Assembly (NCBI GenBank): GCA_022823725.1 | Contig: JAJEHL010000011.1 | Span: 73,107-137,106 of the forward strand | Source: Candidatus Latescibacterota bacterium | GTDB taxonomy: Bacteria > Latescibacterota > UBA2968 | DNA: 64,000 nucleotides | Direction: 5' to 3' | Shown here: positions 4,006-48,400 of the stretch, in pieces | How the letters are laid out: every line of letters begins with the position of its first letter | How positions within the stretch are numbered: position 1 is the stretch's first letter | The notes under the pieces: model-generated | What the model saw: the letters and a program-made list of their open reading frames with translations, nothing else | Told to the model about the DNA's origin: nothing | Databases searched by the model: none | Translations under genes and position numbers: made by a program

Positions 4006-5013
4006 CTAGAACGTTCCCGAAAGCGTCAAACGCAGCGGTCGCTCTTTAATCACACCGCCGATATCGCTGTACGAAACATCCACACTTATCTTGCGCTCTT
4101 CGCTCACATTGAGATTCAAACCCGCCCCCACGCTCCAACTCTCCACATCATAGCGGAACTTATAACCGGCGCGAAGTGCCAGCAAATTTTGTATCCACAA
4201 CTCGCCGCCAATGTGATCGCGCTCTCCATAATCGCGGAAAAACACATGCTCATAAGCACCCGTCAGATAAAGCGGATCGCCCTGCTTGCCGATCAATTCC
4301 ATCGCAACGGCCAGATTGTAGAAAAACGGTAGGCGATAATCCTCGGTCAGCACTTCCTTATTGCCGCCCAGATTGCTGATGGTCATGCCCACGCGCAGGC
4401 TTTTGAAACCCGTGTAAAAAATCGTGCCAATATCAAATGACGTGGAACTCACATTGATGATATGAAGTTGGGACCGCACATAGCGCAGGCGAAAACCAAT
4501 CGAAAACTTATCGGTCAGTTGCTTGGCAAAAGACGCCGCAACCGAAAAATCTCCGAGTTTGATGTTTCGCCCCGTGCCATCGGGTTGCAAGGGCGTGGTC
4601 TCTTCCACATCGGGATAGGTAAATGTGCGAAAAGCGACACCCACAACGCCTATGGGAATGCGATAGGCAAAACCCCCAGCCCCCATCTTAGTGCCCACCA
4701 GCCACTCGTTATAAGACGCCAGATATGCCATATTGTCGATATGCACCAATCCGGCGGCATTCTGGAATATTGCGTGGATATCGCGCGACGTGCCCACATT
4801 GGCATCGGCCATGCCCGCCAGGCGCGCAGATGCAGAAATTTTCAAAAGCGCGAAACCACTGCGTGCAATGCGATTGCCCTTATCGCCTTCCGAGCGAAAA
4901 TGCCCTTCCGCAGCTATGGGTTCCAGATCCTCGAAACCTGCCACATCCTGAGCCATGGCACTTTGAGGGCTGAGAAAAAGCGCGACAGCTGCTATCCAGA
5001 TCATACGTTTCAT
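4006..5013 (-). CDS. outer-membrane beta-barrel protein (PorV/PorQ/PorP-like, T9SS-associated?)
   Basis: The ATG at 5011-5013 is preceded by a GAGGAG RBS; the track start at 5037 is a TTG. Signal peptide MKRMIWIAAVALFLSPQSAMAQD, alternating-hydrophobic strands and a C-terminal ...LTLSGTF ending in Phe, as in OMP barrels. Lies immediately downstream of a T9SS CTD cargo gene. Confidence 0.5.
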   Translation of the reverse strand: MKRMIWIAAVALFLSPQSAMAQDVAGFEDLEPIAAEGHFRSEGDKGNRIARSGFALLKISASARLAGMADANVGTSRDIHAIFQNAAGLVHIDNMAYLASYNEWLVGTKMGAGGFAYRIPIGVVGVAFRTFTYPDVEETTPLQPDGTGRNIKLGDFSVAASFAKQLTDKFSIGFRLRYVRSQLHIINVSSTSFDIGTIFYTGFKSLRVGMTISNLGGNKEVLTEDYRLPFFYNLAVAMELIGKQGDPLYLTGAYEHVFFRDYGERDHIGGELWIQNLLALRAGYKFRYDVESWSVGAGLNLNVSEERKISVDVSYSDIGGVIKERPLRLTLSGTF

Positions 5014-10800: not shown

Positions 10801-11137
10801 GGAGCGTTTCTTCCTGCATCTGGAAGTTCACCGTCGTGGTATGGTCAACATTGACTATCACACCCGTGCGAACAGACTTTGAATACCCCATCATCACCGT
10901 TTCAATATCATAGGTTCCCGGCGGAATATTGATGATGAAGTATTCGCCCTCCTCATCGGTGATCCCGGCGCGTTTCACGCCATCGATATCGATCACCACA
11001 TTGGCACCGGGCAGTGGATCACCTGTAACCTCAGTGACGCGACCACTGATTTTACCCGTTGTGGCCGCTTCTGCCAATCCGGTGCTGATCACCAGGGCGA
11101 CCAGCAGACCCAGACAACACAATAATCGCTTGCTCAT
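7859..11137 (-). CDS. TonB-dependent receptor with an N-terminal carboxypeptidase-regulatory-like domain
   Basis: 1092 aa with a signal peptide, then a CarboxypepD_reg-like N-terminus (GKISGRVTEVTGDPLPGANVVIDIDGVKRAGITDEEGEYFI...GTYDIETVMMGYS), then a plug region. The terminal residues ...HFGLRMKF end in an aromatic, as in TonB-dependent receptors. No SusD partner follows. Confidence 0.8.
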   Translation of the reverse strand: MSKRLLCCLGLLVALVISTGLAEAATTGKISGRVTEVTGDPLPGANVVIDIDGVKRAGITDEEGEYFIINIPPGTYDIETVMMGYSKSVRTGVIVNVDHTTTVNFQMQEETLQLGEMIVVAERPAVEHDKTESKSIITAEEIESLPIVREMSDFVELQAGVTPDEEESVRGGNFWETAYMVDGVRVVNNDARAGFTRFQGVNTSAVQELTVLSGGMNAEYGNAGSVVSVVTKEGGQRYTGRGEYRITPPGQKHWGANVYEAPVHRGRMQWGNPEWENLQAWFPGPDGILGHDNQTGEITDSQFASDDVQRKVHVRQDYTGVWGGRGEAMLGGPIMRRMGFTITSSMNRNPSSFPSTTTVSPFNNRTNLRLTYRPSNNVKLNYGSLFNQRSRYNAGVIRRIEQGSRKNMNSAGRNLFVPAEYSGAGKLRTRDFMNYASLTHTLSARTFYEIRFSYSRTTEVNSELPSNTDQPYVEPGIGNDSGWFYIGRPVVNWTNSERDRYQLKVDYSSQVTKGHFIKTGIDFLFYDNWGFSRNKNDFRGLIERYYSQFNNPNVGVVPRQYAVYFQDKMEFEGIVVNVGLRGLRWSPNTEMPQAAYFIPFYKYHDPTKIENIPTHRPGSIHVLSPRVGVSHPITENSAMHFTFGKFEQIEQFWWIFSHSYRTEEAFLDLNQNGQIDESEINNTLDVVDAGQWGWPKIVPLITTSFEVGADWNFITDYTAGITAYYKQQINRRSGGNYGMQSQGLQHNRSVQASGQTNNRDTRGFELSIKKKFNYMTAFTVAYNVQWVENGNSGVRGAHYINPDRLATKNPSNFGNYAGYIDNDGNFLSHYWYEWTHDSNGDGDFLTDEGVAGPGIVNGSDTGEEFPRPMDGITRFTRGQAFGSQARNHLELVEDAAGRNNWSLDPENSLINWDGKGASTWLQRQNQSQEFRPANLNRTNFGTVTFMFSSPEKFGPRFVGFHPFENLRLNTVYRLFTGRRFFYSPPERGGEGFYNGPIHTRTDLNFEKTFKFNRRASVTAFFEAFNLFNQKDPHISYRVDNQLVEVGSEYVEWGVIYTPLPDNPEYIDYGDVGDYLRYQDSPREFHFGLRMKF

Positions 11138-25809: not shown

Positions 25810-25909
25810 AAGTTCCAAAAACTAAAAATGTTTGCGTGACATTTGCACCATTTCGTTTTATTATTTTATTGCAACCAAATTATCCGCGACAACCTTCAAG
25901 GAGAATTTC

Positions 25910-28768
25910 ATGCGTGCATTATTTATAACTTTTTTTCTTCTGTGGAGCACTTGCTCGGTCATAGCTCAGGATCTCGGTAGCTTGACTGGAAAAGTGGAAG
26001 ATGAAACGGGAGAAGCATTATTCGCAGCCAATGTCATAGTCAAAGGACCGGCCATTGAAGGCACCCGGGGCGCAATCACCAACGACCGGGGAGACTATCG
26101 CATCGACCGCTTGCCGCCGGGCATTTACGAAATCACCATCAGTTATATCGGATATGAAACCATGGTTACAACTGGCGTAGAAATCCGCGCTGGCGAAAGT
26201 ATGACGCGAGATTTCAAGTTGACCGCTGTAGCCCTCATTGGTCAACAGGTCGTGGTATCGGCATCGCGCAAACAGGAAAAAGCCCTGGACGCGCCCGCTT
26301 CAATTGCAACGATCGAAGCAGCCGAAATCAGAGATCGAGGCGTCCTGTCGCCGACCGAGCATATCAAAGCCCTGCCCGGTGTAGATTTTTCCAAAACGGG
26401 CATCTCACAAAGCAACGTGGTCGTTCGCGGATTCAACAATGTATTTTCCGGCGCATTGCTCACACTCGTTGACAATCGCATAGCCCGCGTCCCTTCCCTG
26501 CGTTTCAATGCCTTTGACATGATCCCCGTTACCGGTGACGACATCGAGCGCATTGAAGTGGTATTAGGACCCGGATCCGCGCTTTACGGTCCCAACACCT
26601 CCAGTGGCGTGATGCACATTATCACCCGCTCGCCATTTGGATCAGAAGGCAATACAATTTCCATATCTGGCGGCCAGCGCAGTGTGCGGAGATTATCACT
26701 GCGGCACGCCAGCAGCCTCAACAACAAGATCGGGATCAAAGTCTCAGGTGTGCATAGTTCAGCCCATGACTGGGAGTACATCGATCCTCTGGAAGTAGAA
26801 GCGCGCGGTTTTAATCCACGCGATTACAACTCAAAAAAGACATTGGGAGAACTGAGACTCGATTTTCGACCAACAGATGACCTGACAATCATAGGCTCAA
26901 CGGGTTATACAAAAACAAGCGGTATTGAATTGACGGGTTTGGGCGCGGGCCAGGCAAAAGACTGGACCTATAATTTTTATCAAGGCCGCCTGCTCTATCG
27001 CGAGTGGTTTGCACAAATTTTCTACAACACGAGCAATGCAGGTCAAACGAGAATGATCGCACCCAACGACCCAATTGTAGATAATTCATATTTGATGGTC
27101 ATGCAATTGCAGCACAGTGCCAATTTGGGACAAAAACAACACTTTGCTTATGGTGCTGATGTACTGCGAACCCGACCCGTGACAGGGGGCACAATAAATG
27201 GCATACATGAAGACATTGATAACATCAATGAATACGGGATCTATTTGCAAAGTGAAACCAGCCTGAGCGATCAAATCGAGCTGGTATTGGCCGGGCGCAT
27301 CGACAAACACAGTCACATTGAAGACCCGTTTTTCTCACCCCGCGCAGCGCTGGTCATTAAACCCAGACCGCTCAACACCCTGCGATTGACGTATAACCGC
27401 GCATTTAGCACGCCTTCGACCACCAACTTATTTTTGGACCGGATCGGCCTCCCCGATCCCTTTGGGTTCGGGGCATTGCAATCGTCATTGGGATTTAATC
27501 CAGCAATTGACGTTCGCGCACAGGGCACTGCCGGTACCGGATTCACATTTCGCAGAGACGACAGTGGCCTACCCATGTATCGAACGCCCTTTGCGCCCAT
27601 AGCGGGCTTGTCAAAAGATCACTACTTCTCTCTGCACAGTCCCCAGGGTACCAATTTGATGTGGGGCGCTGCCAGAGAAATAATAATGGGTATCCTTTTG
27701 GCGGAACTGGAACCTCTCGCAACAGGACTTTTCGTCGATCGGCTTGGGCTACCACAAGAACAAGCGGCTGCGGTAGCCGCACAACTGGTCCGAGACTTTC
27801 CCGGGATCATTCCAGAACAACTGCAGGGCTTGCAAAATACGGCCGGCACACTGAATACAGCAACGGCGAGTTTTGATCCCGAGCCCAGCCTCGCCAATGC
27901 AGTGGCAGACATAAACAAAATCGAATCGACCATCTCAGAAACTTTTGAAGTAGGATACAAAGGCGTCATCAATAACAAACTCATTCTGGCAGCCGATGTC
28001 TATCTAAGCAGAAAAAGAAATTTCACCAGCCCGTTGCGGATTGTAACACCCAGTGTATTTCTCGACTCCGGTCCCTTGAACGAGGCTCTGTTAAACGGAA
28101 TTACCGAGAACTTGAAAGACCCTGCCAACGCGAGTCTCGCAATTGCCATCGGTCTTTTAGATCAGCTCAATCTGCCCGATTTGGGCCTGGTCGGCAACGG
28201 CAATGGCACAGGCATAGATGAATTGACGCAGGTATTTGTAGCCAACGCCGCGGGGATCCCCTTTGGCACCATATCTGCCGAACAGGCATCAGATCCCACC
28301 GCAGTGATGGTCGCATATCGCAATTTTGGTCGCATAACGCTCTACGGTGCCGACCTATCGTTTGCGTATTATCCAAACGAAATATGGACTTTTACCGGCA
28401 ATTACTCCTATGTCAGCGATGACTTTTTCCCCAACTTAGACAACATCGGCGACATTGCCCTCAATGCACCCAAGCACAAATTTAACATCGGAATTGATTG
28501 TCAACTGCCCAATACACCACTTACTATTAGTGGGAAATTGAGCTATCGCGGTGGTTTTCCCATGCGATCGGGTGTATATATCGGCGATGTAGATGCTTAT
28601 ACTGTTTTGGACCTGAATACCGCATATCAGTTGCCTATTTCAAATGATCGCTTCAAGGTCACCTGGAATGTGGAAGTCAGCAACGTGTTAAACCAGGAAT
28701 ATCGATCATTTGTCGGTGCGCCATTTATTGGACGCCTAATCTTAACTGGCCTGAATATTCGGTTCTAA
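25910..28768 (+). CDS. TonB-dependent receptor with a CarboxypepD_reg-like N-domain (paralog 1)
   Basis: The ATG at 25910 is preceded by an AAGGAG RBS. Signal peptide MRALFITFFLLWSTCSVIAQD. CarboxypepD_reg segment (LTGKVEDETGEALFAANVIVKG...GIYEITISYIGYE). Plug domain. C-terminal ...GLNIRF. Confidence 0.8.
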   Translation: MRALFITFFLLWSTCSVIAQDLGSLTGKVEDETGEALFAANVIVKGPAIEGTRGAITNDRGDYRIDRLPPGIYEITISYIGYETMVTTGVEIRAGESMTRDFKLTAVALIGQQVVVSASRKQEKALDAPASIATIEAAEIRDRGVLSPTEHIKALPGVDFSKTGISQSNVVVRGFNNVFSGALLTLVDNRIARVPSLRFNAFDMIPVTGDDIERIEVVLGPGSALYGPNTSSGVMHIITRSPFGSEGNTISISGGQRSVRRLSLRHASSLNNKIGIKVSGVHSSAHDWEYIDPLEVEARGFNPRDYNSKKTLGELRLDFRPTDDLTIIGSTGYTKTSGIELTGLGAGQAKDWTYNFYQGRLLYREWFAQIFYNTSNAGQTRMIAPNDPIVDNSYLMVMQLQHSANLGQKQHFAYGADVLRTRPVTGGTINGIHEDIDNINEYGIYLQSETSLSDQIELVLAGRIDKHSHIEDPFFSPRAALVIKPRPLNTLRLTYNRAFSTPSTTNLFLDRIGLPDPFGFGALQSSLGFNPAIDVRAQGTAGTGFTFRRDDSGLPMYRTPFAPIAGLSKDHYFSLHSPQGTNLMWGAAREIIMGILLAELEPLATGLFVDRLGLPQEQAAAVAAQLVRDFPGIIPEQLQGLQNTAGTLNTATASFDPEPSLANAVADINKIESTISETFEVGYKGVINNKLILAADVYLSRKRNFTSPLRIVTPSVFLDSGPLNEALLNGITENLKDPANASLAIAIGLLDQLNLPDLGLVGNGNGTGIDELTQVFVANAAGIPFGTISAEQASDPTAVMVAYRNFGRITLYGADLSFAYYPNEIWTFTGNYSYVSDDFFPNLDNIGDIALNAPKHKFNIGIDCQLPNTPLTISGKLSYRGGFPMRSGVYIGDVDAYTVLDLNTAYQLPISNDRFKVTWNVEVSNVLNQEYRSFVGAPFIGRLILTGLNIRF

Positions 28769-28823: not shown

Positions 28824-31685
28824 ATGCGTGTATTGTATATCCTTGCTTTCGTACTGTGGAATGCTTACTCGGTCGTAGCTCAGGACTTCGGCAGTTTGAC
28901 GGGCAAAGTGAAAACCGAAGACGGAGAAATCTTATTCGGTGCCAATATCATAGTCAAAGGACCTGCCATTGAAGGCACCCGGGGCGCAATCACCAACGAC
29001 CGGGGAGACTATCGCATCGACCGCTTGCCGCCGGGCATTTACGAAATCACCATCAGTTATATCGGATATGAATCCATCGTTACAACCGGCGTAGAAATCC
29101 GCGCGGGCGAAAGTATGACGCGAGATTTCAGACTGACCGCTGTAACCCTCATTGGTCAACAAGTCGTGGTATCGGCATCGCGCAAACAAGAAAAAGCCCT
29201 GGACGCGCCCGCCTCAATTGCAACAGTCGATGCGTCTGAAATCAGAAATCGAGAAGTCTTGACAATGAGCGAATACGTCAAGACTCTGCCCGGCGTTGAC
29301 TATGCTCAAACAGGCATATCGCAAGGCAGCATGGTAGTTCGCGGATTCAACAAAGTATTTTCTGGCGCACTGCTCACACTCGTTGACAACCGCATTGCCC
29401 GAATCCCGTCGCTACGCTTGAATGCCTATGATTTGATCCCCCTTACCAGTGACGACATTGAGCGCATTGAAGTGGTTTTAGGACCCGGATCTGCGCTTTA
29501 CGGTCCCAACAGCGCCAATGGCGTGATGCACATTATCACCCGCTCGCCATTTGGATCGGAAGGCAATACAATTTCCATATCTGGCGGCCAGCGCAGTGTG
29601 CGAAAATTATCACTGCGGCACGCCAGCAGCCTCAACAACAAGATCGGGATCAAAGTTTCGGGTGGATATGTTGCAACCCATGACTGGGAATATGTCGATT
29701 CCCTGGAAGTGGAAGCGCGCGGTTTTAATCCACGCGATTATAGCACAGAAAGGACAAGTGGGGAGTTCAGACTCGATTTTCGACCAACAGACAACCTGAC
29801 ATTGATAGGGTCGGTGGGCTATTCAAAAATGAGCGGCCTTCAACAGACGGATTTGGGCGCGGGCCAGGCGAAAGACTGGACCTATAATTTTTATCAAGGC
29901 CGCCTGCTGTATCGCGGATGGTTCGCACAGATCTTCTACAACACCAGTAATGCAGGCGACACGGAACTGATCACAGCCGGTGACCCAATTGTAGATAATT
30001 CACATTTGATGGTCTCGCAACTGCAACACAATGCCAGTTTGGGACAGAAACAACACTTTGCTTATGGTGCTGACGTACTGCTCACCCGGCCCAAAACACA
30101 GGGCACAGTACACGGCATGCATGAAGACAATGACGACATCGATGAATACGGGATTTACCTGCAAAGCGAAACCAATCTGAGCGATCAAATCGATCTGATA
30201 TTGGCCGGGCGTATCGACAAACACAGCCATATAGGAGATCCGTTTTTTTCTCCCCGCGCAGCACTGGTCATCAAACCCACGCCGGAAAACACCCTGCGAT
30301 TGACGTATAACCGCGCATTTAGCACACCCTTAACCCCCGACATGTTTGTAGATCGGGTCGGCGTTCCCGACATCTTTATGCTCGGCACAAGTTTCAGCCC
30401 GGTATTGGGATTTAGTCCAGCAATTGACCTTCGCGCCCAGGGCACCGCCGGTACCGGATTCACATTTCGCAGAGACGACAATGGGCTACCCATGTTTCGG
30501 ACGGCCTTTGCGCCCATAGCGGGCTTGTCAAAAGATCACTACTTCTCTCTGCACGATCCCCAGGTCACCAATTTGATGTGGGGTGCTGCCAGAGAGGCAA
30601 TACTGGACGGCTTTCTATCTGAACTGGAACCTCTCGCAACAGAGCTTATCGCAGGCGGGCTTGGACTACCACCAGATCAAGCGGTTGCACTGATCGAAAA
30701 ACTCGTCGAGATCTTTCCCGGAACTATCCCAGAACAACTGCCGGGCTTGCAAAATACGGCTGCGATACTGAATGCAGAAACGCAGGGTTTCGATCCCATA
30801 CCCGACCTCGCCAATGCAGTGACAGACATAGAAAAACTCGGACCCACCATAACAGAAACCTTTGAAGTGGGATACAAAGGCATCATCAACAACAAACTCA
30901 TCCTGGCAGCCGATGTCTATCAAACCAGAATCAAAAATTTCGTCAGCCCGTTGCGGATTGAAACGCCCAACGTATTTCTCGCCCCCGGTCCCTTAAGCGA
31001 AGCCCTGACAGACGCGCTTACCGAGAACCTGAAAGACCCTGCCAATGCAAGCCTCGCAATTGCCCTTGTTTTTTTAGATCAACTCAACGAGCCAGAGTTG
31101 GGATTGGTTGGCAATGGCAATGGAACAGGCGTGGATGAATTGACGGAGCTATTCGTAGCCAACGCCGCGCTGATCCCATTTGGCACCATAGTGCCCGAAC
31201 AGGCAGCAGACCCCAATGCCGTGATAGTCGCACCTCGCAATTTTGGCAATATAACGCTCTACGGTGCCGACCTGTCGTTTGCGTATTATCCAAACGAAAT
31301 ATGGGCTTTTACCGGCAATTACTCATACGTCAGCAAGGACTTTTTCCCCAATTTAGACAACATCGGCGACATTGCCCTCAATGCTCCCCGGCACAAATTT
31401 AACATCGGTATCGATTGCCAACTGCCCAATATACCGCTCACGATCCGAGGGAAATTGCGTTACCGCGATGGCTTTCCAATGCAATCGGGTATATATGTCG
31501 GCAATGTAGATGCTCATACTGTTCTGGATTTGAATATCACCTATCAATTGCCTCTTTCAAATGATCGCTTCAACACCACCCTGAGTTTGGATGCCAGCAA
31601 TTTGCTAAGCCAGGAATATCAATCACTTGTCGGTGCGCCCTGGATCGGACGCCTGATTACAAGCAGCTTGCACGTTCGATTCTAA
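28824..31685 (+). CDS. TonB-dependent receptor (paralog 2, tandem duplicate of 25910..28768)
   Basis: About 75% identical to paralog 1 over the full length. Has an AAGGAGGG RBS. C-terminal ...SLHVRF. Confidence 0.8.
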   Translation: MRVLYILAFVLWNAYSVVAQDFGSLTGKVKTEDGEILFGANIIVKGPAIEGTRGAITNDRGDYRIDRLPPGIYEITISYIGYESIVTTGVEIRAGESMTRDFRLTAVTLIGQQVVVSASRKQEKALDAPASIATVDASEIRNREVLTMSEYVKTLPGVDYAQTGISQGSMVVRGFNKVFSGALLTLVDNRIARIPSLRLNAYDLIPLTSDDIERIEVVLGPGSALYGPNSANGVMHIITRSPFGSEGNTISISGGQRSVRKLSLRHASSLNNKIGIKVSGGYVATHDWEYVDSLEVEARGFNPRDYSTERTSGEFRLDFRPTDNLTLIGSVGYSKMSGLQQTDLGAGQAKDWTYNFYQGRLLYRGWFAQIFYNTSNAGDTELITAGDPIVDNSHLMVSQLQHNASLGQKQHFAYGADVLLTRPKTQGTVHGMHEDNDDIDEYGIYLQSETNLSDQIDLILAGRIDKHSHIGDPFFSPRAALVIKPTPENTLRLTYNRAFSTPLTPDMFVDRVGVPDIFMLGTSFSPVLGFSPAIDLRAQGTAGTGFTFRRDDNGLPMFRTAFAPIAGLSKDHYFSLHDPQVTNLMWGAAREAILDGFLSELEPLATELIAGGLGLPPDQAVALIEKLVEIFPGTIPEQLPGLQNTAAILNAETQGFDPIPDLANAVTDIEKLGPTITETFEVGYKGIINNKLILAADVYQTRIKNFVSPLRIETPNVFLAPGPLSEALTDALTENLKDPANASLAIALVFLDQLNEPELGLVGNGNGTGVDELTELFVANAALIPFGTIVPEQAADPNAVIVAPRNFGNITLYGADLSFAYYPNEIWAFTGNYSYVSKDFFPNLDNIGDIALNAPRHKFNIGIDCQLPNIPLTIRGKLRYRDGFPMQSGIYVGNVDAHTVLDLNITYQLPLSNDRFNTTLSLDASNLLSQEYQSLVGAPWIGRLITSSLHVRF

Positions 31686-31835: not shown

Positions 31836-33026
31836 CTACTCAAGCGGCTGATAAGGCCGGGATTCTGGATCGCGTTCGGGAAGCCCCAAACTATCCCAAA
31901 AAATTGTGTGTTCAAATGGTGTGAGGCGAAAATCCGGAATGGGAACTGGCGCACCGCCCAACTCAGCGGATTTATTTGCCAAAATCCCCGGCAAGCAGTA
32001 TTCAATGGCGCGATACACATCAATAGGCGATGGCTTGCCAGCGAGAATAGACTGTGTAAAATGTCGGGCGAGTTTTAAGTCTGCACCGCCGTGACCTGCA
32101 GAAATATCATCGCCATGTGCGCCAAGACCAACGGGTAAAACCTCCCAACCACTGCGATGATCTGCCCCGCGAGAAAAGCGACGCGCGTGTTTTTCATAGC
32201 TAAACCACTCGGCACCGCCCTCAACGCCAAAAATGCGATAGCGGTGTTCAGAAGGACGGGCTGTATTCAGCGTAACCATAATTTTTATAAGTGCGCCCTT
32301 TGCTGTCTCGAACACCGCGATCTGACCGTCGGAGCGCAAAGGTGCGTCGGCACTTCGGAATGGCGCGCTGCGACAAGAAACAGAAACACAGCGATCGTCA
32401 ATCACTTCGAGCAATGGCCCCAGATCATGCGTCAGATATTGAATAGGCGGTTGATCGGCACGCCAGATCGGCATTGTATCCACATAACCGGCTGCTCGCG
32501 CTCGAGTCGGTGTATGCCGCGAACTATCGGGGCGAAAAAGCGTACCCGGCAAATGGTGAATATATTCTCCTTCGGCAATGGAAATGGGACCAAAGCGATC
32601 TTCGGCAACCCACTTGCGGAAATAGCGAAAAAAATCCCAATAACAGGTATTTTCTCCCAGCATATACGTTTTGCCCGTGTATTCAACGGTTTGGCGCAAA
32701 TTCATACACTCTTCTTGCGTATAAGCACCGGGAACTTCAGAAAGCACATGACAACCCGCGCGCATAGCCTGGCAACCGTGTTCCACCTGTAATTTGCCAT
32801 TCGTCGCAACCACAATAGCATCGGGTTTGAGATCGAGCAAATCGTCAAACTCGGGCAAAATCGGAGCCGATGCGCCAACCGATGCCAGATGTTGCTCGGC
32901 GCGTTCTCTCAAGCGTGGAAAGCGGTCGCAAGCACCAATAACCTCAGCCTCTTCCAGAGCGAGAAAATTCCTGAAATGCGTAAAACCGCGACCGAGGCCC
33001 AGAATACCAACTTTGAGTTTGTCCAT
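31836..33026 (-). CDS. Gfo/Idh/MocA-family oxidoreductase
   Basis: Start at the ATG 33024-33026 (MDKLKVGILGLGRGFTHF...). Rossmann GxGxxG at the N-terminus. Confidence 0.75.
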   Translation of the reverse strand: MDKLKVGILGLGRGFTHFRNFLALEEAEVIGACDRFPRLRERAEQHLASVGASAPILPEFDDLLDLKPDAIVVATNGKLQVEHGCQAMRAGCHVLSEVPGAYTQEECMNLRQTVEYTGKTYMLGENTCYWDFFRYFRKWVAEDRFGPISIAEGEYIHHLPGTLFRPDSSRHTPTRARAAGYVDTMPIWRADQPPIQYLTHDLGPLLEVIDDRCVSVSCRSAPFRSADAPLRSDGQIAVFETAKGALIKIMVTLNTARPSEHRYRIFGVEGGAEWFSYEKHARRFSRGADHRSGWEVLPVGLGAHGDDISAGHGGADLKLARHFTQSILAGKPSPIDVYRAIEYCLPGILANKSAELGGAPVPIPDFRLTPFEHTIFWDSLGLPERDPESRPYQPLE

Positions 33027-33041
33027 AATTAAACCCCTCAA

Positions 33042-34727
33042 TCAAGCAGACACAACGCGAATATCAACCTCAAATGCACTGACGGGATAATTTATACCCC
33101 AGATTTCGAGAACGCTGGGATGCACTTCCCCAATAAGCCCGTAAACGCGCTCGCATATCCGGATCTCGCCACTGCGACCAGGCAAAAATGTGGGATGATC
33201 AATCGGCGCAATAGTATATTCAAAATTAAAATAATAGGATAACACCTCGAGAAAGCTCTGAATACCGGACAAATTGGCCTCGTCACTCGCTTCGAGCGCA
33301 CAGAGATGAATATCTGTGCGCGTACCGTAATCTTCCTCCGGCGCGAGAACCCCCACCTCACCCACTTCAAAAATCCGATGCGGGTACAACGCGCGGCGGC
33401 TTGTCGCTTCGGTCTTCAACAAACCGGGCAACAAAGACGCTCGAATCGCGCTGTAATTTTCGGACATGGGATTTGAAATCGAAATAATCTTTGCATCCGG
33501 ATTATTCATATCCACGGTCTGTTCTTTTTGAGAACAGAGAATCGGCAAAAAGACCTCTTGAAATCCGCTCCCAACCATGAGATTGCGAAATCGGTCTGCA
33601 AGATCCTCTTCTGGCGCGGCTTTGCCAACCGTAAAATCCCGGGGCATCTCGGGTTCAAAAGCCTCGTACCCCACACCGATCACAACATCTTCCACAACAT
33701 CGACAGGATGCAAAATATCGTCGCGATAAGGTGCTGGACGCACTTTGATACTCCGCTCTTGCATTTCAATATCCCGATAACCCATCGCGTTGAGCGCGGT
33801 CTGAATCTGCCCTATCGAAATATGTGACCCAACCACTTTGTAAATCTCATCCACATCGACCTGCAACGGCTCGGTCAGATCATAAGGACACGTCACAACC
33901 TGTCCCCTCGGCGTGTGAAATGGATACCGCACCGTCACGGGATAAATACGACCGCCCCGATCAGCCATATTGACCGCCATAATCGCCATAGACAAAAGAA
34001 TAGCGTCGAGTTCGGGACCCGTTGCTTCGCAAAACAAAAACGCATCCCCCACTTCAACGCGCCCCAGACTCTGGCTATTAATCACAGGAGGCATCGAAAG
34101 AACCTCGCCGCGCGAATCGCGGATCAGGGGAAACTTATCCTTCCCCTCGAGAAGATGTGCATACATCTTGCCCGTGGGATGATCGGACAAAATCTGTCGC
34201 AAAGACATCTCATCTTCAAACTCCAGGGGAACAAAAGCAGTTTCATCGGGATCAACCGCATCGTATCGCACCGGATACACAATATCGGACGCATCGTAAA
34301 TCCCAATCGCAACAACGCTGCGACCTCGCCCATATCCATCGGCGAGTTTTTCCTGCGCCTCGATAAGCGCGTCAAGTGCCGCCTCGTCAATCGCAATACC
34401 CTCACACGCAAAAGCGGCAATATAAGGACGGATATTTCGCAACCCGGGATCGACAATAACCTCCCTTTCCTGCGATACGCCAGACGCATCAAAAAAAGAA
34501 TAGTCTGGCTGAACATTCTCCCGATGGCTTTTGAGCAACCGCGCAAGCCCCTCTCCCGACCACAAATCGGGACGATTGGTATCCTTGAGCTGAATGCGAA
34601 GCGTATCCCCATCCTCGGCATCAATCTCAGCCTTCGCAGTTTCAAGAGCAGCACTCAGGCTCTCCGACGAATAAACCTGCCCCGCGAGACGTTCAAAATC
34701 GGGTTTATTAACTGTAATCGTTGGCAT
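33042..34727 (-). CDS. pheT: phenylalanine--tRNA ligase beta subunit, archaeal/eukaryotic type
   Basis: 561 aa. The N-terminus MPTITVNKPDFERLAGQ and overall length match archaeal-type PheT, about 550 aa versus about 800 aa for bacterial PheT. Lies immediately downstream of the archaeal-type pheS. Confidence 0.7.
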   Translation of the reverse strand: MPTITVNKPDFERLAGQVYSSESLSAALETAKAEIDAEDGDTLRIQLKDTNRPDLWSGEGLARLLKSHRENVQPDYSFFDASGVSQEREVIVDPGLRNIRPYIAAFACEGIAIDEAALDALIEAQEKLADGYGRGRSVVAIGIYDASDIVYPVRYDAVDPDETAFVPLEFEDEMSLRQILSDHPTGKMYAHLLEGKDKFPLIRDSRGEVLSMPPVINSQSLGRVEVGDAFLFCEATGPELDAILLSMAIMAVNMADRGGRIYPVTVRYPFHTPRGQVVTCPYDLTEPLQVDVDEIYKVVGSHISIGQIQTALNAMGYRDIEMQERSIKVRPAPYRDDILHPVDVVEDVVIGVGYEAFEPEMPRDFTVGKAAPEEDLADRFRNLMVGSGFQEVFLPILCSQKEQTVDMNNPDAKIISISNPMSENYSAIRASLLPGLLKTEATSRRALYPHRIFEVGEVGVLAPEEDYGTRTDIHLCALEASDEANLSGIQSFLEVLSYYFNFEYTIAPIDHPTFLPGRSGEIRICERVYGLIGEVHPSVLEIWGINYPVSAFEVDIRVVSA

Positions 34728-34746: not shown

Positions 34747-36285
34747 TTACCGCGTATTCCTGACCAGATCCAAATCCGTACTGAACAAATCGCGTATATC
34801 GTTAATACCCAGCGCGACCATCGCCATTCTATCAACCCCCAGACCCCAGGCAATAACCGGAACATCCACACCCAGAGGTCGTGTAAGCTCAGGCCGAAAA
34901 AGACCCGCACCACCAAGCTCAATCCATCCCAGAACGGGATGCTTCGCCTGAAGTTCGACCGAAGGCTCGGTAAAAGGAAAATAATCGGGCACATAGCGCA
35001 CATCTTCGGACTGCGCGATCTCAAGCGCGAACAGCTTGAGCAAACCGAGCAAACTGCGAAAATTTATTTCCTCACCCAAAACAATACCCTCAGCCTGAAA
35101 AAAATCTGCCGCATGCGTGGCATCGACATCATCCGGACGAAAACAACGCGCAAGCGCGAAATATTTACCCGGGATATTTGGCTTTGAAGCGAGCGTACGC
35201 CCCGAAAGCGCAGTCCCCTGACTCCGCAAAATAAGGCGGCGCGACTGCTCGGGATTAAATTCATATTGCCAACCGCGCGAACCAGTATCGCCCCCGTTCT
35301 GATGCGCCTCAGCCACCCTCGAAAAATAGGGTTCCTCTGCCTCTCGGGATTGCGTCGGCTCCGTAACATAATACGCATCGTGAATATTGCGCGCCGCGTG
35401 GAACTGCGGCATAAAAAGGGCATCCATATTCCAGAACTCGGTCTCCACCAGAGAACCTTTCATCTCTTCAAAACCAAGCACCATCAACCGGCGCCGCACA
35501 TTATCGAGATACGCCCGATAGGGATGGTGCTTTCCAATAAGCACGCGCGGCGGCTTAATCGACAAATCATATCGGCGAAAAGACGCGCCCTGCCATGTAC
35601 CCTTCTGAATCATTTCCGGCGTAAGCCGAGAAACTTCATCACCCGTAAGATTGGCTTTGACAACCTCCACAAGCACGCGCCGTCCTTCTTCAGTAAGACA
35701 ATAAACCCGCTCCGTGCGCTCGTCCAAACGAACAGGTGCCCTGCCCCCGCCGCGCTTGCGGGCATTGGCTTCGATATACTGGACAACATCACCGGGAAAA
35801 TTATCAATCTCAATTCCGGTATCGGAAAATTTGTCAAAAAATTCTGGCATAAGTCGATCAATAAAAAAAGAAGCCCGATCTGCATCGACAATAACAACAG
35901 CCCCCTTATCCAGATCGATAATCCCATCCTTTTTCAAACCGCCAAAAGCACTGCCCCAGGCACCTCTGTCAAAACGCTCGTCAGCCTGCAAATCTTGAAT
36001 CCCAACACGCTCTGCATTCGCCCGGGTCAAAAGTGCCGTCTCTGGCGTCGCGCCCTTTGCTACAAAATCCCGTCCCACTTCCGTAAGCGAAACCGTTGCA
36101 CGCGTATTTTCTCCAGTAACTTCGAGCAACTGCTTGGAAATCAGCCACTCGACCGCGCGCCGAACCTGTCCTTCGCCAATGCCCGCCCCCTTTTGAAGTT
36201 GTGCATCGGACTGCTCGGCACTGGCATTATTCTCATATACACGCAAAATGCGAATTTCGAGCGCATGTAAAGATGCGAGATCCAT
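34747..36285 (-). CDS. pheS: phenylalanine--tRNA ligase alpha subunit, archaeal/eukaryotic type
   Basis: Start at the ATG 36283-36285 (MDLASLHALEIRIL...) with a GGAG RBS; the track start at 36318 is a TTG inside the T-box terminator. About 510 aa with an extended N-terminal tRNA-binding region. Class II catalytic core ...FRPDDVDATHAADFFQAEG...GWIELGGAGLFRPE...AWGLGVDRMAM. Confidence 0.7.
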   Translation of the reverse strand: MDLASLHALEIRILRVYENNASAEQSDAQLQKGAGIGEGQVRRAVEWLISKQLLEVTGENTRATVSLTEVGRDFVAKGATPETALLTRANAERVGIQDLQADERFDRGAWGSAFGGLKKDGIIDLDKGAVVIVDADRASFFIDRLMPEFFDKFSDTGIEIDNFPGDVVQYIEANARKRGGGRAPVRLDERTERVYCLTEEGRRVLVEVVKANLTGDEVSRLTPEMIQKGTWQGASFRRYDLSIKPPRVLIGKHHPYRAYLDNVRRRLMVLGFEEMKGSLVETEFWNMDALFMPQFHAARNIHDAYYVTEPTQSREAEEPYFSRVAEAHQNGGDTGSRGWQYEFNPEQSRRLILRSQGTALSGRTLASKPNIPGKYFALARCFRPDDVDATHAADFFQAEGIVLGEEINFRSLLGLLKLFALEIAQSEDVRYVPDYFPFTEPSVELQAKHPVLGWIELGGAGLFRPELTRPLGVDVPVIAWGLGVDRMAMVALGINDIRDLFSTDLDLVRNTR

Positions 36286-36310
36286 CAAGAGAAACTCCAA
36301 TGTTAGTATT

Positions 36311-36586
36311 AAAAACAAAAAGCCCCTTCGTCATCATAGGGACGAAAGAGCTTCTCCGCGGTACCACCCTATTTGCGCTTAAAAGCACCACTCAGTAGAT
36401 GGCCGTCACCATCCTGTCCATTATCGGCGGACCCACCGGCTCGGCTTAATAGGAAACTGTCTTTCCATTCGGCTTTGCAGCTCGGGAGGGAACTTCGCCT
36501 GTGCATCCTGCAGATGTGCTTTCAGCCCAGGACACATCCTCTCTGTGCAGTTGGGAACAGGCTACTTTTCTCCGTCATTGCTTTAA
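36311..36586 (-). promoter_or_regulatory. T-box riboswitch leader (Phe specifier candidate) upstream of pheS
   Basis: The minus strand contains CAAAUAGGGUGGUACCGCGGAG, a 15/17 match to the T-box consensus AAUUAGGGUGGNACCGCG. It is followed by the terminator CUUUCGUCCCUAUGAUGACGAAGGGGCUUUUUGUUUUU. Upstream is an AGAGAG (GA/K-turn-like) motif and a GAAGUUCCC segment holding a UUC Phe codon. A promoter TTGACA-N17-TATGTT lies at 36593-36622. Confidence 0.6.
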
Positions 36587-36637
36587 GGGCAAAACATAGA
36601 AATTTGCGCTACAAGTGTCAAGCCGAAAGTAGCAAAT

Positions 36638-38872
36638 CTATCCGTTAATCGTTTTTCCAAAAACCTGGACGAACATAAGAAAATCGGTAAAGTCAACAGA
36701 ACCATTCCCATCGATATCGAATTGGGACTCGGACGATCCAAACGCCCCCACAAACAGGAGAAAATCGGCAAAGTCGATTGTGCCATCTCTGTTAAAATCC
36801 GATTTGGCTTCCACAGAAAGCGGCTGGACAACGCCAGAAATCGTCAGCATAAGCTTTGCGCGATCCGGATCATTGCTCAAAATATTGACACTCCCCGAAA
36901 ACTCGCCCTCCATGGGTCTGGGAAACGTAATCGTAATCGTCGCAGAACTATCCGGAGACAGTGTAAACATCACAGGATCAAACGTCAGACCCGGCACATC
37001 GCTCTCAATACCCGTAATCTCCAAATCCGCGGTACCCGTATTCGTAATCGTGAAAGTCTGTTGAGCCGTCTTTTCGGCATCAATACTCCCGAAATCAATT
37101 GCGGGTGCCCCCACAACCAGCACTGGCGCAGGCGCCGCCTGCACAATCACAGAAACAGACAACGTCTGTGTTCCACTATTCGTGTCATTACTCGAAATCG
37201 TAATATTCCCCGAAAAAGTACCTTCCACAGAACTCGGAAACGTCACCGTCACCGTCTGCGAATCGTCAGGTTCTAATGTGAACATCGTAGTATCAAACGT
37301 CAAACCCGACACATCACTCTCAATACCCGTAATCTCCAAATCCGCGGTACCCGTATTCCTGATCGTAATCGTCCGCTGAACCGTTTGAGCAAACGCAACA
37401 GTACCAAAATCAACTGCCGTTTGCTGAACAGCAATCACTGGCACAGGTCGCGGCTGCACGGTCACAGAAACAGACAACGTCTGTGTTCCACTATTCGTGT
37501 CATTACTCGAAATATTGATATTACCCGAAAACGTACCCTCCACAGAACTCGGAAACGTAATCGTCACCATCTGTGAACTGCCAGGTTCCACTGTGAACAT
37601 CACAGGATCAAACTTCAGACCTGCCACATCACCCTCACCTTTAATACCTGTAATCATCAAAGGTGCAGTACCAGTGTTCTCAATCGTAATTGTCTGTTCA
37701 CCTGTTTGACCTGCGACAATAGGATCGAAATTAACTGCCGTTTGCTGAACAGCAATCGCTGGCACAGGTCGCGGCTGCACGGTCACAGAAACAGACAACG
37801 TCTGTGTTCCACTATTCGTGTCATCACTCGAAATCGTGATATTACCCGAAAACGTACCCGCTGTCGAACTCGGAAACGTAATCGTAACTGTCTGCGAACC
37901 ATTGGGAGCCAACGTGAACGTAGAAGGCGTAAACATCAAACCCGGCACATCACTCTCAATACCCGTAATCTCCAAATCCGCGGTACCCGCATTCCTGATC
38001 GTAATCGTCTGCTGAACCGTTTGAGCAAACGCAACAGTACCAAAATTAACTGCTGTTTGCTGAACAGCGATCACCGGTACAGGGGGCGGCTGCACAATCA
38101 CAGAAACGGATAATATCTGGGTTGCACGATCCGGGTCATTACTCGAAATCGTGATATTACCCGAAAACGTACCCGCTGTCGAACTCGGAAACGTAATCGT
38201 CACCATCTGTGAACTGTTAGGTGCCAGTGTGAACATCGTAGTATCAAACTTCAACCCCGGCACATCGCTCTCGATACCCGTAATCTCAAGGGAACCTGTG
38301 CCTGTATTCGTAATCGTAATCGTCTGTTGACCTGTTTGACCTGCGACAATCGTGCCAAAATCAACTGCCGTTTGCTGCACAGCGATCGTCGGCACACTCG
38401 CGGGTATTTGCGCCAACAGTTCAGTAACCTTGTCTTTCACCTGAGTAACAGAACTTGAACTCAGACCGCCTATGACGGGTAATGCAGTCCCATTGGGACG
38501 AACCACAACGAAGTTCTCATACGAGGCCGGAGCAGAACTACTCGCATTTAGAAGCAGGGGAAAGGTGATGCCTCCGTTCCTGCGAAAACCCTCAACCTGA
38601 GACTGACTACCACCCCAGGTATCGAGACCGAGCATCTCTACATTGGGGTTTGCTTTATAATCTTGCCATAATCCTTCGAGTCGCGGACCCGCCGCTTGAC
38701 AGGTCGGTCAGCCATGCCCAAAGACCGCAAGTATGAGTACTTTGCCACGATAGTCAGAGGCACTATATGTATTGCCATCGAGGCCCCGTAGAGAAAAATT
38801 AACCGTTTGTGCAGAGGCAGCCCCAACGAGCAAAAGCAGAATCATCGGGATGGACAATAGGTATTGGCGCAT
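36638..38872 (-). CDS. selenoprotein candidate: secreted TlpA-like redoxin (U-P-T-C motif) fused to five Ig-like (ASH/choice-of-anchor-D-like) repeats and a C-terminal dockerin
   Basis: The ATG at 38870-38872 (AAGGA RBS) opens MRQYLLSIPMILLLLVGAASAQTVNFSLRGLDGNTYSASDYRGKVLILAVFGHG. An in-frame TGA at 38708-38710 follows, then PTCQAAGPRLEGLWQDYKANPNVEMLGLDTWGG..., continuing the ORF-track entry 36638..38635 in the same frame. The UGA falls exactly at the first Cys of the redoxin F-x-x-x-W-C-x-x-C motif. The body is five repeats of about 105 aa (IAVQQTAV(D/N)FG...LEITGIESDV.GL.F...VTITFPSS..GTFSGNITISSND). The C-terminus has two dockerin-type calcium-binding segments (DFNRDGTIDFADF and DIDGNGSVDFTDF). 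Confidence 0.6.
38680..38700 (-). promoter_or_regulatory. bacterial SECIS-like hairpin 8 nt downstream of the in-frame UGA
   Basis: mRNA ...UGA CCGACCUG UCAAGCGG CGGGU CCGCGAC...: the stem GUC(AA)GCGG / CCGCGAC has a G/U-containing apical loop CGGGU. Placement is compatible with bSECIS. Confidence 0.4.
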
Positions 38873-46066: not shown

Positions 46067-48400
46067 TCAGGTCTCCTGCATGAGTTTCCAGAGTTTTTCA
46101 GGACGCAAAGGCAAATCGATATGCCGCACGCCAAAAGGTTTCAGCGCGTCAATCACCGCATTGGCTATCGCGGGCGTAGAACCAATCGTACCCGCTTCGC
46201 CCACACCTTTGACACCCATCGGATTAACGGGCGAAGGCGTAACCGTATTTGCCAGTTCAAAGCGCGGAAAATTGTGCGCTTTGGGCAAGGCATAATCCAT
46301 AAATGAACCAGTGATCATCTGCCCGCTTTCATCGTAAATAGCTTCCTCGTAAAGGGCCTGTCCCACACCCTGCGCAATACCGCCGTGTACCTGGCCCTCA
46401 ACAATCAACGGATTGATAATATTCCCACAATCGTCAACGGCAATATAGCGTTGTATCTCGACCTCGCCCGTATCGGCATCGACCTCGACCACGGCGATAT
46501 GCGTGCCAAAGGGATAGGTAAAATTGGGCGGTTCAAAAAAGTGCGATTCGGCCAAACCGGGTTCTGTGCCCTCGGGGAGTTCCACCCCCACATGAGCCAC
46601 CATCGCAATCTCGCCCAAAGTAAGACCCGACTCGGGCGCACCCCGAACGCAGTATTTGTCGTCTTCAATCACAATATCCTGCGGATTGCTCTCCAGCAGA
46701 TGCGCGGCAATATTGATCACTTTATCTTTCACCTTGCCCATCGCATGCACCATCGCCGTACCACCCACAGCCGTCGCGCGGCTACCAAATGTACCAATAC
46801 CGTATTGCACCGTATCAGTATCGCCGTGGATAATGCGAATATCGTCAATATCAACCCCCAAACCATCGGCAATAAGCTGGGCAAATGTGGTCTCCTGCCC
46901 CTGTCCGTGAGGCGATACACCCGTGAGCACGGTTACCTTACCCGTGGGATCTACGCGCACAGTACTGCTTTCCCATCCGCCAGCGGGCATCGCAGCAGAA
47001 GGACCCATCCCACAAATCTCCACATAAGTGGAAAATCCAATACCGAGATATCGGCCCTCTTCTCGCAATTCGGCCTGCTGCTCGCGCAAAGCGTCGTAAT
47101 CGGCAATCTTGAGTGCCTTGTCGAGCGCCGCCGTATAGTCGCCACTATCATAAGCCACAGCAGTCCCCGTTTCATAGGGAAAAGCATCTTTGCCGATAAA
47201 GTTTTTGCGCCGCACCTCCAGAGGATCCAGATCCAGATCGTGCGCCACCACATCGATCATGCGTTCGATGAGATACGTGGCCTCTGGACGCCCCGCACCT
47301 CGATAGGCATCCGTCGCCATCTTATTCGTAAAAGCCGCTTTGAGATTCATCTGCACATTTTTAAACGTGTAAGAACCGCACAACATCAATCCCGTAAGCG
47401 TGGGAATGGCCGGTGTGAGCAACTGATAATAAGCTCCCACATCAGCCGAAACCGTGTATCTGAGACCCAGGATCGTACCGTCGTCTTTCACCGCGAGTTC
47501 GACATCCCCTGTCTGATCGCGTCCGTGAATCGTGTGCAAAAAGTTCTCACGCCGCCCTTCAATCCACTTCACGGGTTGCCCCAGATATTTCGCCATATGC
47601 CCCAGCAGAGCTTCCTCGGCATACACATTGAGCTTGCAACCAAAACCACCGCCCACTTCGGGCGCAATAACGCGCACATGATTTTCGGCCATACTGAGCA
47701 TAACGGATATTTGCGTGCGCAAAAGATGGGGAATTTGCGTGGAAGACCACAAGTTGAGCTGATCTTTGCCGGGCAAATATTGGGCAACCACACCGCGCGT
47801 CTCCATCGGATTGGGAACCAGACGCTGATGGTCAATTCGCTGGCTAACGACATGATCGGCCTCGGCAAAAGCCGCATCCACATCGCCCCCGGCAATACTC
47901 CAGGTAAAAGCCATATTATCGTCCCAATCTTCGTGAATAATAGGCGCGCCATCGGCAAAAGCCGCCTCAGCCGAATTGATGGCATCGAGAGGTTCGTAAT
48001 CGACCTCAATCAAATCCAGTGCATCCTGAGCAATATACGCATCGGTCGCTGCAACAGCGGCGACGGGTTCACCGACAAAACGCACCTTTCCCGTAGCGAG
48101 CACGGGATGGTGGGGCACCTTAATACCCGGAAATCCCTCCGGATCTGTAGCCGCACAGGGAATCCCACCAATGACGTCTTTAACATCATCGCCAGTGACA
48201 ACAGACTTGACGCCGGATAAATTTTGAGCCGCATCGGTATTAATACCATTGATGCGCGCATGGGCATAAGGGCTTCGCAAAATCGCGACATGTAACAAAT
48301 TGGGCAACTTAATGTCATCGACATAATGTGCAAGGCCCTGAATCAGTCGAGGGTCTTCTCGGCGCTTAATACGGGCGCCAACAGATTTGCTAACAGGCAT
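46067..48400 (-). CDS. coxL: molybdopterin-binding large subunit, form II CODH-like (AYRGAGR motif)
   Basis: 777 aa in the aldehyde oxidase / xanthine dehydrogenase a/b-hammerhead and MoCo-binding family. The active-site loop AYRGAGR at 47288-47308 (GCC TAT CGA GGT GCG GGG CGT on the minus strand) is the form II motif rather than form I AYxCSFR. Confidence 0.85.
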   Translation of the reverse strand: MPVSKSVGARIKRREDPRLIQGLAHYVDDIKLPNLLHVAILRSPYAHARINGINTDAAQNLSGVKSVVTGDDVKDVIGGIPCAATDPEGFPGIKVPHHPVLATGKVRFVGEPVAAVAATDAYIAQDALDLIEVDYEPLDAINSAEAAFADGAPIIHEDWDDNMAFTWSIAGGDVDAAFAEADHVVSQRIDHQRLVPNPMETRGVVAQYLPGKDQLNLWSSTQIPHLLRTQISVMLSMAENHVRVIAPEVGGGFGCKLNVYAEEALLGHMAKYLGQPVKWIEGRRENFLHTIHGRDQTGDVELAVKDDGTILGLRYTVSADVGAYYQLLTPAIPTLTGLMLCGSYTFKNVQMNLKAAFTNKMATDAYRGAGRPEATYLIERMIDVVAHDLDLDPLEVRRKNFIGKDAFPYETGTAVAYDSGDYTAALDKALKIADYDALREQQAELREEGRYLGIGFSTYVEICGMGPSAAMPAGGWESSTVRVDPTGKVTVLTGVSPHGQGQETTFAQLIADGLGVDIDDIRIIHGDTDTVQYGIGTFGSRATAVGGTAMVHAMGKVKDKVINIAAHLLESNPQDIVIEDDKYCVRGAPESGLTLGEIAMVAHVGVELPEGTEPGLAESHFFEPPNFTYPFGTHIAVVEVDADTGEVEIQRYIAVDDCGNIINPLIVEGQVHGGIAQGVGQALYEEAIYDESGQMITGSFMDYALPKAHNFPRFELANTVTPSPVNPMGVKGVGEAGTIGSTPAIANAVIDALKPFGVRHIDLPLRPEKLWKLMQET

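Follow-up and report, generated by a model that had tools for sequence, protein, structure and literature searches.

A genuine phenylalanine-specific T-box riboswitch stands ahead of an archaeal-type pheS-pheT operon (pheST), encoding phenylalanyl-tRNA synthetase (PheRS), in the candidate phylum Latescibacterota. Both lie on the minus strand of a 64,000-nt stretch of Candidatus Latescibacterota DNA (GenBank assembly GCA_022823725.1, contig JAJEHL010000011.1, positions 73,107 to 137,106), the whole of which we call the window; coordinates given without a locus name are counted within it. Judging from the sequence comparisons described below, it is very probable that the leader is a functional class I, that is, transcription-attenuating, T-box sensing tRNA-Phe, that it controls pheS-pheT and possibly an adjacent oxidoreductase gene, and that it is ancestral to its clade, with at least three losses. 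What is new here is the phylum, the type of enzyme regulated, one additional hairpin that covaries, and Rfam scores below the threshold in most relatives; the mechanism is the textbook one.

The leader matches the T-box family over its full length

A preliminary description of this DNA had proposed a T-box at this position and a covariance search with the Rfam T-box model, RF00230, as a way of checking it. This search gave a significant match on the minus strand at 36587–36335, with 108.4 bits, an E-value of 5.1e-23 and coverage of model positions 1–219 out of 219. Given a gathering score of 93 bits for this family, such a full-length match far exceeds what chance would produce, and a chance match was thus ruled out as an explanation of the leader. 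No Rfam family besides the T-box was matched within the 64-kb window. The T-box core, AAAUAGGGUGGUACCGCGG at 36374–36356, does agree with the consensus quoted in the preliminary description, although a recount gives 16 of the 17 specified positions rather than 15. The leader is made up of the following features.

36335–36587, minus strand: T-box leader, full-length match to RF00230
36593–36621, minus strand: predicted sigma-70-type promoter, TTGACA-17 nt-TATGTT, with 10 of 12 consensus matches
36480–36581, minus strand: Stem I, from the RF00230 alignment and covariation
36490–36492, minus strand: specifier codon UUC (Phe), on the 3' side of the Stem I specifier loop
36439–36478, minus strand: Stem II with upper helix GGAA/UUCC, from the RF00230 alignment and covariation of helix 8
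36416–36438, minus strand: Stem IIA hairpin (CGG...CCG) and IIB pseudoknot, from the RF00230 alignment (helix 9)
36398–36413, minus strand: extra hairpin X (GAUGG-UGACGG-CCAUC), inserted relative to the Rfam consensus between the IIA/B pseudoknot and Stem III
36375–36388, minus strand: Stem III (GUGC-UUUUAA-GCGC), from the RF00230 alignment (helix 11) and RNAalifold
36338–36370, minus strand: antiterminator helix with the 7-nt T-box bulge UGGUACC, from the RF00230 alignment; canonical structure at −5.8 kcal/mol
36311–36356, minus strand: intrinsic terminator, a 16-bp stem-loop (36356–36317) plus the U tract UUUUUGUUUUU

Conservation was judged from an alignment of 27 non-redundant leaders, onto which the Rfam structure of the window sequence was mapped. 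Stem I is complete in the window: it has a K-turn at its base (UGA at 36577–36575 with CGA at 36484–36482), an S-turn (AGUA at 36566–36563), an AG bulge (AGAGAG at 36544–36539) and a distal loop (36532–36519). All four elements (the S-turn as AGUA/GAA) vary little or not at all among the 27 leaders. The preliminary description had taken AGAGAG for the GA-motif, which is wrong: this hexamer forms the AG bulge in the distal part of Stem I, and the GA/K-turn motif is the UGA/CGA pair at the base.

The UUC codon that had been noted in a candidate specifier loop turned out to occupy the canonical position in the Stem I internal loop. The 3' side of the specifier loop is GAAGUUCC (36496–36489), and UUC sits 2–4 nt from the 3' end of the loop, which is the +0 frame according to the rule of the T-box database TBDB (PMC7778990). 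The codon is invariant in 27/27 aligned leaders, with variable positions on both sides of it. Two-codon families such as Phe have a single strongly preferred specifier, and UUU is used in only ~1% of Phe T-boxes (PMC7778990).

Beyond Stem I, the leader continues through Stem II, which in relatives carries variable insertions of up to ~80 nt. One such insertion, of ~80 nt, is seen in locus L015 (~2735–2825), where it has purine-rich and pyrimidine-rich arms, GAAAGAGGAAATAAGAAAGAAGAA ... TTCTTCCTTCTCTCTT; this leader still scores 105.6 bits with RF00230. In the IIB pseudoknot, the loop GUCC (36432–36429) pairs with GGAC (36419–36416), and the partners co-vary across relatives as GUCC/GGAC, CUCUC/GAGAG, CUCCC/GGGAG, CUCUUU/AAAGAG and CGUUCC/GGAGCG. 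Two hairpins follow. The second is flanked by 5'-GAGUG and AA-3', which corresponds to the RRRNG-Stem III-AA motif described in PMC7778990 and identifies the hairpin at 36388–36375, and not hairpin X, as Stem III. Hairpin X has equivalents in L001–L043 and L066 and is absent from the two bacterial-type pheS T-boxes examined (L081 and L169).

The 3' part of the leader has the arrangement of a transcriptional switch. As the preliminary description had it, an intrinsic terminator directly follows the T-box and overlaps the antiterminator. The terminator 5' arm overlaps the antiterminator 3' arm in the common segment UUCGUCCCU, so that the two folds are mutually exclusive, and the U tract spans 36321–36311. 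Within the antiterminator bulge, UGGU (36366–36363) is complementary to the tRNA 3' end ACCA and hence expects the discriminator base A73. The predicted promoter was likewise found at 36621–36593; its pattern is kept in close relatives of the window, and the predicted transcript start, ~6–7 nt downstream, coincides with the start of the Rfam match.

Covariation supports the T-box fold

The imposed T-box structure is well respected across the alignment: 94.7% of cells are paired, versus 38–48% when the partners are slid by 1–3 columns, and 27/51 pairs are changed on both sides, versus 9–13 in the slid controls. None of 500 shuffles reached the observed covariation values. The covariation is carried by Stem I, upper Stem II, hairpin X and Stem III. 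Helices 3–5 of Stem I have 14/16 pairs changed on both sides and are 88–96% paired, all pairs of the upper Stem II helix (4/4) are changed on both sides, and hairpin X (helix 10) is 99.3% paired with 4/5 pairs changed on both sides. In the terminator (helix 12), 97% of cells are paired; three of its pairs vary on both sides and a further four on one side only. Invariant or nearly so are the S-turn, GAA, UUC, the K-turn, the whole T-box core (including the bulge sequence AGGGUGGUACCGCG) and the 3' arm CUUUCGUCCC, and the antiterminator as a whole is nearly invariant. The expectation that Stem I, the specifier loop and the antiterminator bulge could be folded consistently was thus borne out, with covariation in 27 homologous leaders. 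The leader is conserved, and its structure is under selection.

Working from the alignment alone, RNAalifold predicted four of these elements again (Stem I, hairpin X, Stem III and terminator), with support from 26 compensatory pairs. It also paired UUC with GAA/GGA across the specifier loop, which we treat as an artefact of the energy model because this pairing has no compensatory support, whereas the Rfam register has one compensatory case (L015).

In terms of predicted stability, the terminator hairpin (−21.0 kcal/mol) far exceeds the antiterminator, which suggests that termination is the default state, as in classical T-boxes. The 3' region of the leader folds at −29.9 kcal/mol (z −3.55), and the minimum-free-energy fold of the whole leader is the terminator conformer.

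Several observations weigh against the reading of the leader as a functional T-box. The folding energy of the whole leader is no better than that of shuffled sequences (z −1.0), so that thermodynamics alone lends no support and the case rests on the model match and the comparative evidence; such a z-score is no surprise in a switch that has two folds in competition. Four non-standard pairs in the lower part of Stem II were flagged by cmscan. The antiterminator helices do not vary, and covariation therefore speaks neither for nor against them. T-boxes usually carry a purine 3' of the specifier, and here this base is C, with A in L034 only. The match to anticodon GAA and A73 of the host tRNA-Phe is taken from general knowledge of tRNAs, as no tRNA-Phe gene was found by tRNA searches, including ARAGORN, of the window and 44 related loci. 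Lastly, six relatives have no leader, one of them (L005) with a PheS 94% identical to that of the window, and the control is evidently dispensable.

The downstream operon encodes an archaeal-type PheRS

The genes downstream of the leader are the following.

34747–36288, minus strand: pheS, archaeal/eukaryotic-type PheRS alpha subunit, 513 aa (NF003210, 536.7 bits)
33042–34727, minus strand: pheT, archaeal-type PheRS beta subunit, 561 aa, 19 nt after pheS (TIGR00471, 488.5 bits)
31836–33041, minus strand: Gfo/Idh/MocA-family oxidoreductase gene, abutting pheT, by sequence match

The preliminary description of these genes as an archaeal-type pheS-pheT pair was correct: each subunit exceeds the cutoff of its archaeal-type model, 350 for NF003210 (PRK04172) and 282.65 for TIGR00471 (pheT_arch). 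PheT reaches 111.3 bits with the bacterial model pheT_bact, below its cutoff of 402.65. Compared with solved structures, PheS resembles the eukaryotic cytosolic alpha chains of ~500 residues best (209–219 bits), with bacterial alpha chains at ~96–116 bits. The subunit sizes of 513 and 561 aa are also those of the archaeal/eukaryotic type, for which ~500/560 aa have been reported, versus ~340/800 aa for bacterial PheRS (PMC3191353). Alignment with relatives points to TTG at 36288 as the most likely start codon of pheS, in preference to the next codon, ATG; the gene begins 22 nt after the U tract and has a Shine–Dalgarno sequence, GGAG, at 36298–36295. Among the 80 related loci, pheT is linked to pheS wherever the locus is long enough to show it. 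No convincing terminator was found between pheT and the oxidoreductase gene, which may be co-transcribed as the third gene of the unit; their adjacency is kept only in the closest relatives.

Building on the directly supported family membership, structural elements, conservation, covariation and gene identity, we infer tRNA binding and read-through along the following lines. Transcription would start at the TTGACA/TATGTT promoter, and Stem I would bind tRNA-Phe, with the UUC specifier pairing with the GAA anticodon and the tRNA elbow docking on the platform formed by the AG bulge and distal loop. An uncharged tRNA would pair its free ACCA end with the bulge UGGU and stabilise the weak antiterminator, allowing polymerase to read into pheST. 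With a charged tRNA, this pairing would not occur, the more stable terminator would form, and transcription would stop at the U tract. Since a T-box senses tRNA charging, the evolutionary type of the synthetase is irrelevant to its mechanism. The preliminary description had called the combination of T-box, archaeal-type PheRS and host unexpected; this holds insofar as the host is outside the classical range of T-boxes according to published surveys (PMC2494555 Table 3, PMC3766115), and does not hold in the sense of a mechanistic oddity.

The leader is ancestral to the sampled clade

A genome scan with the PheS of the window yielded 80 loci, 44 at 62–98% identity, which we refer to as the clade, and 36 from Nitrospirota at 51–54%. 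Nearly all of the 44 clade loci are labelled Candidatus Latescibacterota, with a few Gemmatimonadota and a few other bacterial metagenome-assembled genomes (MAGs). The exact core UGGUACCGCG occurs 80–370 nt upstream of pheS in 37/44 clade loci, and the complete leader was recovered by nhmmer in these same loci; in a further locus, L028, the leader is cut by the contig end inside the terminator, bringing the total to 38/44. The leader is absent from the remaining six (L005, L010, L011, L012, L013 and L014). On a neighbour-joining tree of PheS, it is present on every deep Latescibacterota branch and the six absences fall into three groups, which argues for its presence in the common ancestor of the sampled clade, followed by at least three losses.

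In L005 (~2950–3000) and L012 (~2895–3000), the upstream dockerin-type gene and pheS are kept and the ~290-nt leader is cleanly gone, a short spacer standing in its place. In four near-identical loci (L001, L009, L038 and L042), terminator and pheS are separated by an additional 80–140 nt; the added segment of L042 includes the palindrome GGGCGACC...GGTCGCCC, which may be a small mobile insertion or one resembling repetitive extragenic palindromic elements.

At the gathering threshold of RF00230, only 2/17 clade loci passed. Reading this as absence of the leader from relatives proved untenable, since in E-value mode 9/9 tested relatives matched over the full length at 66–97 bits, with 8/9 below 93. 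The low scores are mainly due to the Stem II insertions and hairpin X. Routine annotation will consequently miss such leaders.

Outside the clade, the T-box core was found upstream of pheS in none of the 36 Nitrospirota loci, and RF00230 gave no match at E ≤ 0.01 on nine of them, including two with stray core-like words. A T-box before the archaeal-type pheS of Nitrospirota was rejected on these grounds. Two Nitrospirota MAG contigs carry group I intron matches (RF00028) above the gathering score, ~2.5 kb upstream of the archaeal-type pheS (L044, 145–351, minus strand, 63 bits; L076, 593–809, minus strand, 62.6 bits).

Alternative explanations

The T-box might be real and yet serve an auxiliary PheRS, for instance a stress-induced or inhibitor-resistant copy, with a bacterial-type PheRS encoded elsewhere doing the housekeeping. 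In Firmicutes, T-boxes often control duplicated aminoacyl-tRNA synthetase (aaRS) genes, and multiple ligase copies are shown in the tables of PMC2494555. We nevertheless regard this as unlikely, given that archaeal-type pheST is present in 44/44 sampled clade genomes, with identities falling into coherent clades as in vertical inheritance, and that lineages without the leader still retain the operon. Moreover, the 64-kb window and the related loci hold no hint of a second pheS, and Spirochaetaceae are a case in which the bacterial enzyme gave way to the archaeal-type one (PMC3191353). We therefore infer a housekeeping role for this PheRS. It is very improbable that the leader is instead the decaying relic of a horizontally acquired T-box and regulates nothing. 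Loss from six relatives and scores below the Rfam gathering value in most clade copies would fit such decay; however, the functional motifs are all intact and nearly invariant, compensatory changes are found in every variable helix across genomes whose PheS is 62–98% identical to that of the window, and it is the Stem II insertions and hairpin X that lower the scores, with no decay of the core motifs involved.

Two further possibilities accept a working T-box and differ in what it does or senses. It could act on translation by sequestering the ribosome-binding site, as class II T-boxes of Actinobacteria do (PMC7778990, PMC11297988). This is hardly tenable here, as a strong, covarying intrinsic terminator with a U tract overlaps and directly follows the antiterminator, the GGAG Shine–Dalgarno sequence lies 13 nt past the U tract in neither helix, and Stem I has its full length, where class II T-boxes have a truncated one. 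Alternatively, the specifier could be read in another frame, as GUU (Val) or UCC (Ser), and a different tRNA be sensed. The +1 frame does specify serine in all leaders (UCC, or UCA in L034), whereas the −1 frame varies between relatives (GUU, or UUU in L018), and UUC is the canonical +0 frame with pheST downstream. The discriminator base is A73 in tRNA-Phe and G73 in bacterial tRNA-Ser. A bulge UGGU that expects A73 thus fits the former and argues against serine, leaving little room for any other frame. The relic, translational control and the alternative specifier frames were all rejected on this evidence, and a class I T-box sensing tRNA-Phe is the reading that we carry forward.

Comparison with known systems

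According to the surveys of T-box range that we used (Wels 2008, Sun 2013), Firmicutes account for >95% of matches, the others being from Actinobacteria, Chloroflexi, Deinococcus-Thermus and two delta-proteobacteria, and none were found in Bacteroidetes/Chlorobi or Spirochaetes (PMC2494555 Table 3, PMC3766115). T-boxes outside the usual phyla have been attributed to horizontal transfer (TBDB preprint, bioRxiv 10.1101/2020.06.17.157016). Latescibacterota belong to the FCB (Fibrobacteres, Chlorobi, Bacteroidetes) group, in line with the FCB-like host suggested in the preliminary description. Our literature searches found nothing relevant linking T-boxes with Latescibacteria, Gemmatimonadetes or Nitrospirae, and no paper linking them with archaeal-type PheRS.

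The closest parallels are the class I aaRS T-boxes of Firmicutes, especially the leaders of bacterial-type pheST (metagenomic L100, L150, L169 and L081), which share the RF00230 model and architecture, the UUC specifier, the UGGU bulge and the feedback logic on the cognate synthetase. Compared with these Gram-positive pheST T-boxes, the present leader differs in its FCB-group host, the archaeal/eukaryotic type of its PheRS, the extra hairpin X, the pyrimidine after the specifier and the sub-threshold Rfam scores of most clade members. The leuA T-boxes of Geobacter sulfurreducens and Pelobacter carbinolicus (PMC2494555) are likewise isolated, Gram-negative and outside the usual range, but they regulate a biosynthetic gene in few species, whereas here an aaRS operon is controlled and the leader goes back to the ancestor of a broad clade within a whole candidate phylum. 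With the class II ileS T-boxes of Actinobacteria, the leader shares the tRNA-sensing core of specifier and UGGN bulge; those have a shortened Stem I and a sequestrator hiding the Shine–Dalgarno sequence, in place of the full Stem I and intrinsic terminator seen here.

On the side of the enzyme, the archaeal-type PheRS of Spirochaetaceae (Andam and Gogarten 2011, PMC3191353) and of Nitrospirota (L044–L080) are of the same kind, with alpha subunits of ~500 and beta subunits of ~560 aa and adjacent pheS and pheT. The Nitrospirota PheS, at 51–54% identity, is the nearest relative outside the clade, and no T-box was found upstream of it; nor did a survey find T-boxes in 6 spirochaete genomes (PMC2494555 Table 3).

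When metagenomes were scanned with the conserved 3' core, the matches were T-boxes from many lineages, located before bacterial pheS, ileS and aromatic biosynthesis genes. Only L137, with an archaeal-type pheS, and L186, with a UUC specifier and a contig that ends before the gene, resemble the present leader, and with this generic 3' core neither a donor of the leader nor a sister T-box, be it before another gene or elsewhere in this phylum, was identified. An unrelated metagenomic contig (L097, ~4300–4560) carries two tandem T-box-like elements before genes for 3-deoxy-D-arabino-heptulosonate 7-phosphate (DAHP) synthase and prephenate dehydratase.

The finding extends the range of T-boxes to a candidate phylum of the FCB group and leaves the understanding of T-box function unchanged. 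It shows that a xenologous synthetase of archaeal type can acquire a T-box, illustrating the indifference of the switch to the enzyme. With ancestral presence, three independent losses, variable Stem II insertions and an extra hairpin, the clade offers a natural series for studying how T-boxes spread and are lost. A wider interpretation, on which our judgement is evenly balanced, would make this the first described T-box lineage of an FCB phylum, recruited early to an operon of archaeal derivation and equipped with a lineage-specific hairpin. Enzyme and switch would then form a chimera of different foreign origins, and, with most copies below the Rfam gathering score, T-boxes in uncultured Gram-negative phyla may be systematically under-counted.

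Genomic surroundings

The gene upstream of the promoter (36638–38635, minus strand) encodes a 665-aa, repetitive Ig-like surface protein, in which five Ig repeats of the choice-of-anchor D/ASH type are followed at the C-terminus by two calcium-binding repeats resembling a dockerin. Its synteny with pheS is kept in the closest relatives, and no terminator is present in the 17-nt gap between its stop codon and the −35 box.

The tRNA search of the window and 44 related loci gave only tRNA-Leu(CAG) plus one predicted tRNA-Ser(GGA). The tRNA-Leu(CAG) gene lies on the strand opposite to pheT, convergent to it and ~100 nt after it, in the seven loci of one subclade (L023, L024, L027, L028, L031, L032 and L043). 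The tRNA-Ser(GGA) was called by ARAGORN inside the pheT of L032 and is probably a false positive.

Elsewhere in the window are three genes for large TonB-dependent receptors with SusC/RagA-like N-terminal parts (25832–28768 and 28824–31685, plus strand, in tandem; 7859–11137, minus strand). Such SusC/TonB-type receptors are consistent with a Gram-negative envelope of the FCB type. A gene on the minus strand at 46067–48400 encodes a molybdenum hydroxylase large subunit whose scores fall narrowly short of the cutoffs of two models, glyceraldehyde dehydrogenase alpha (759 bits) and the large subunit of aerobic CO dehydrogenase (733 bits).

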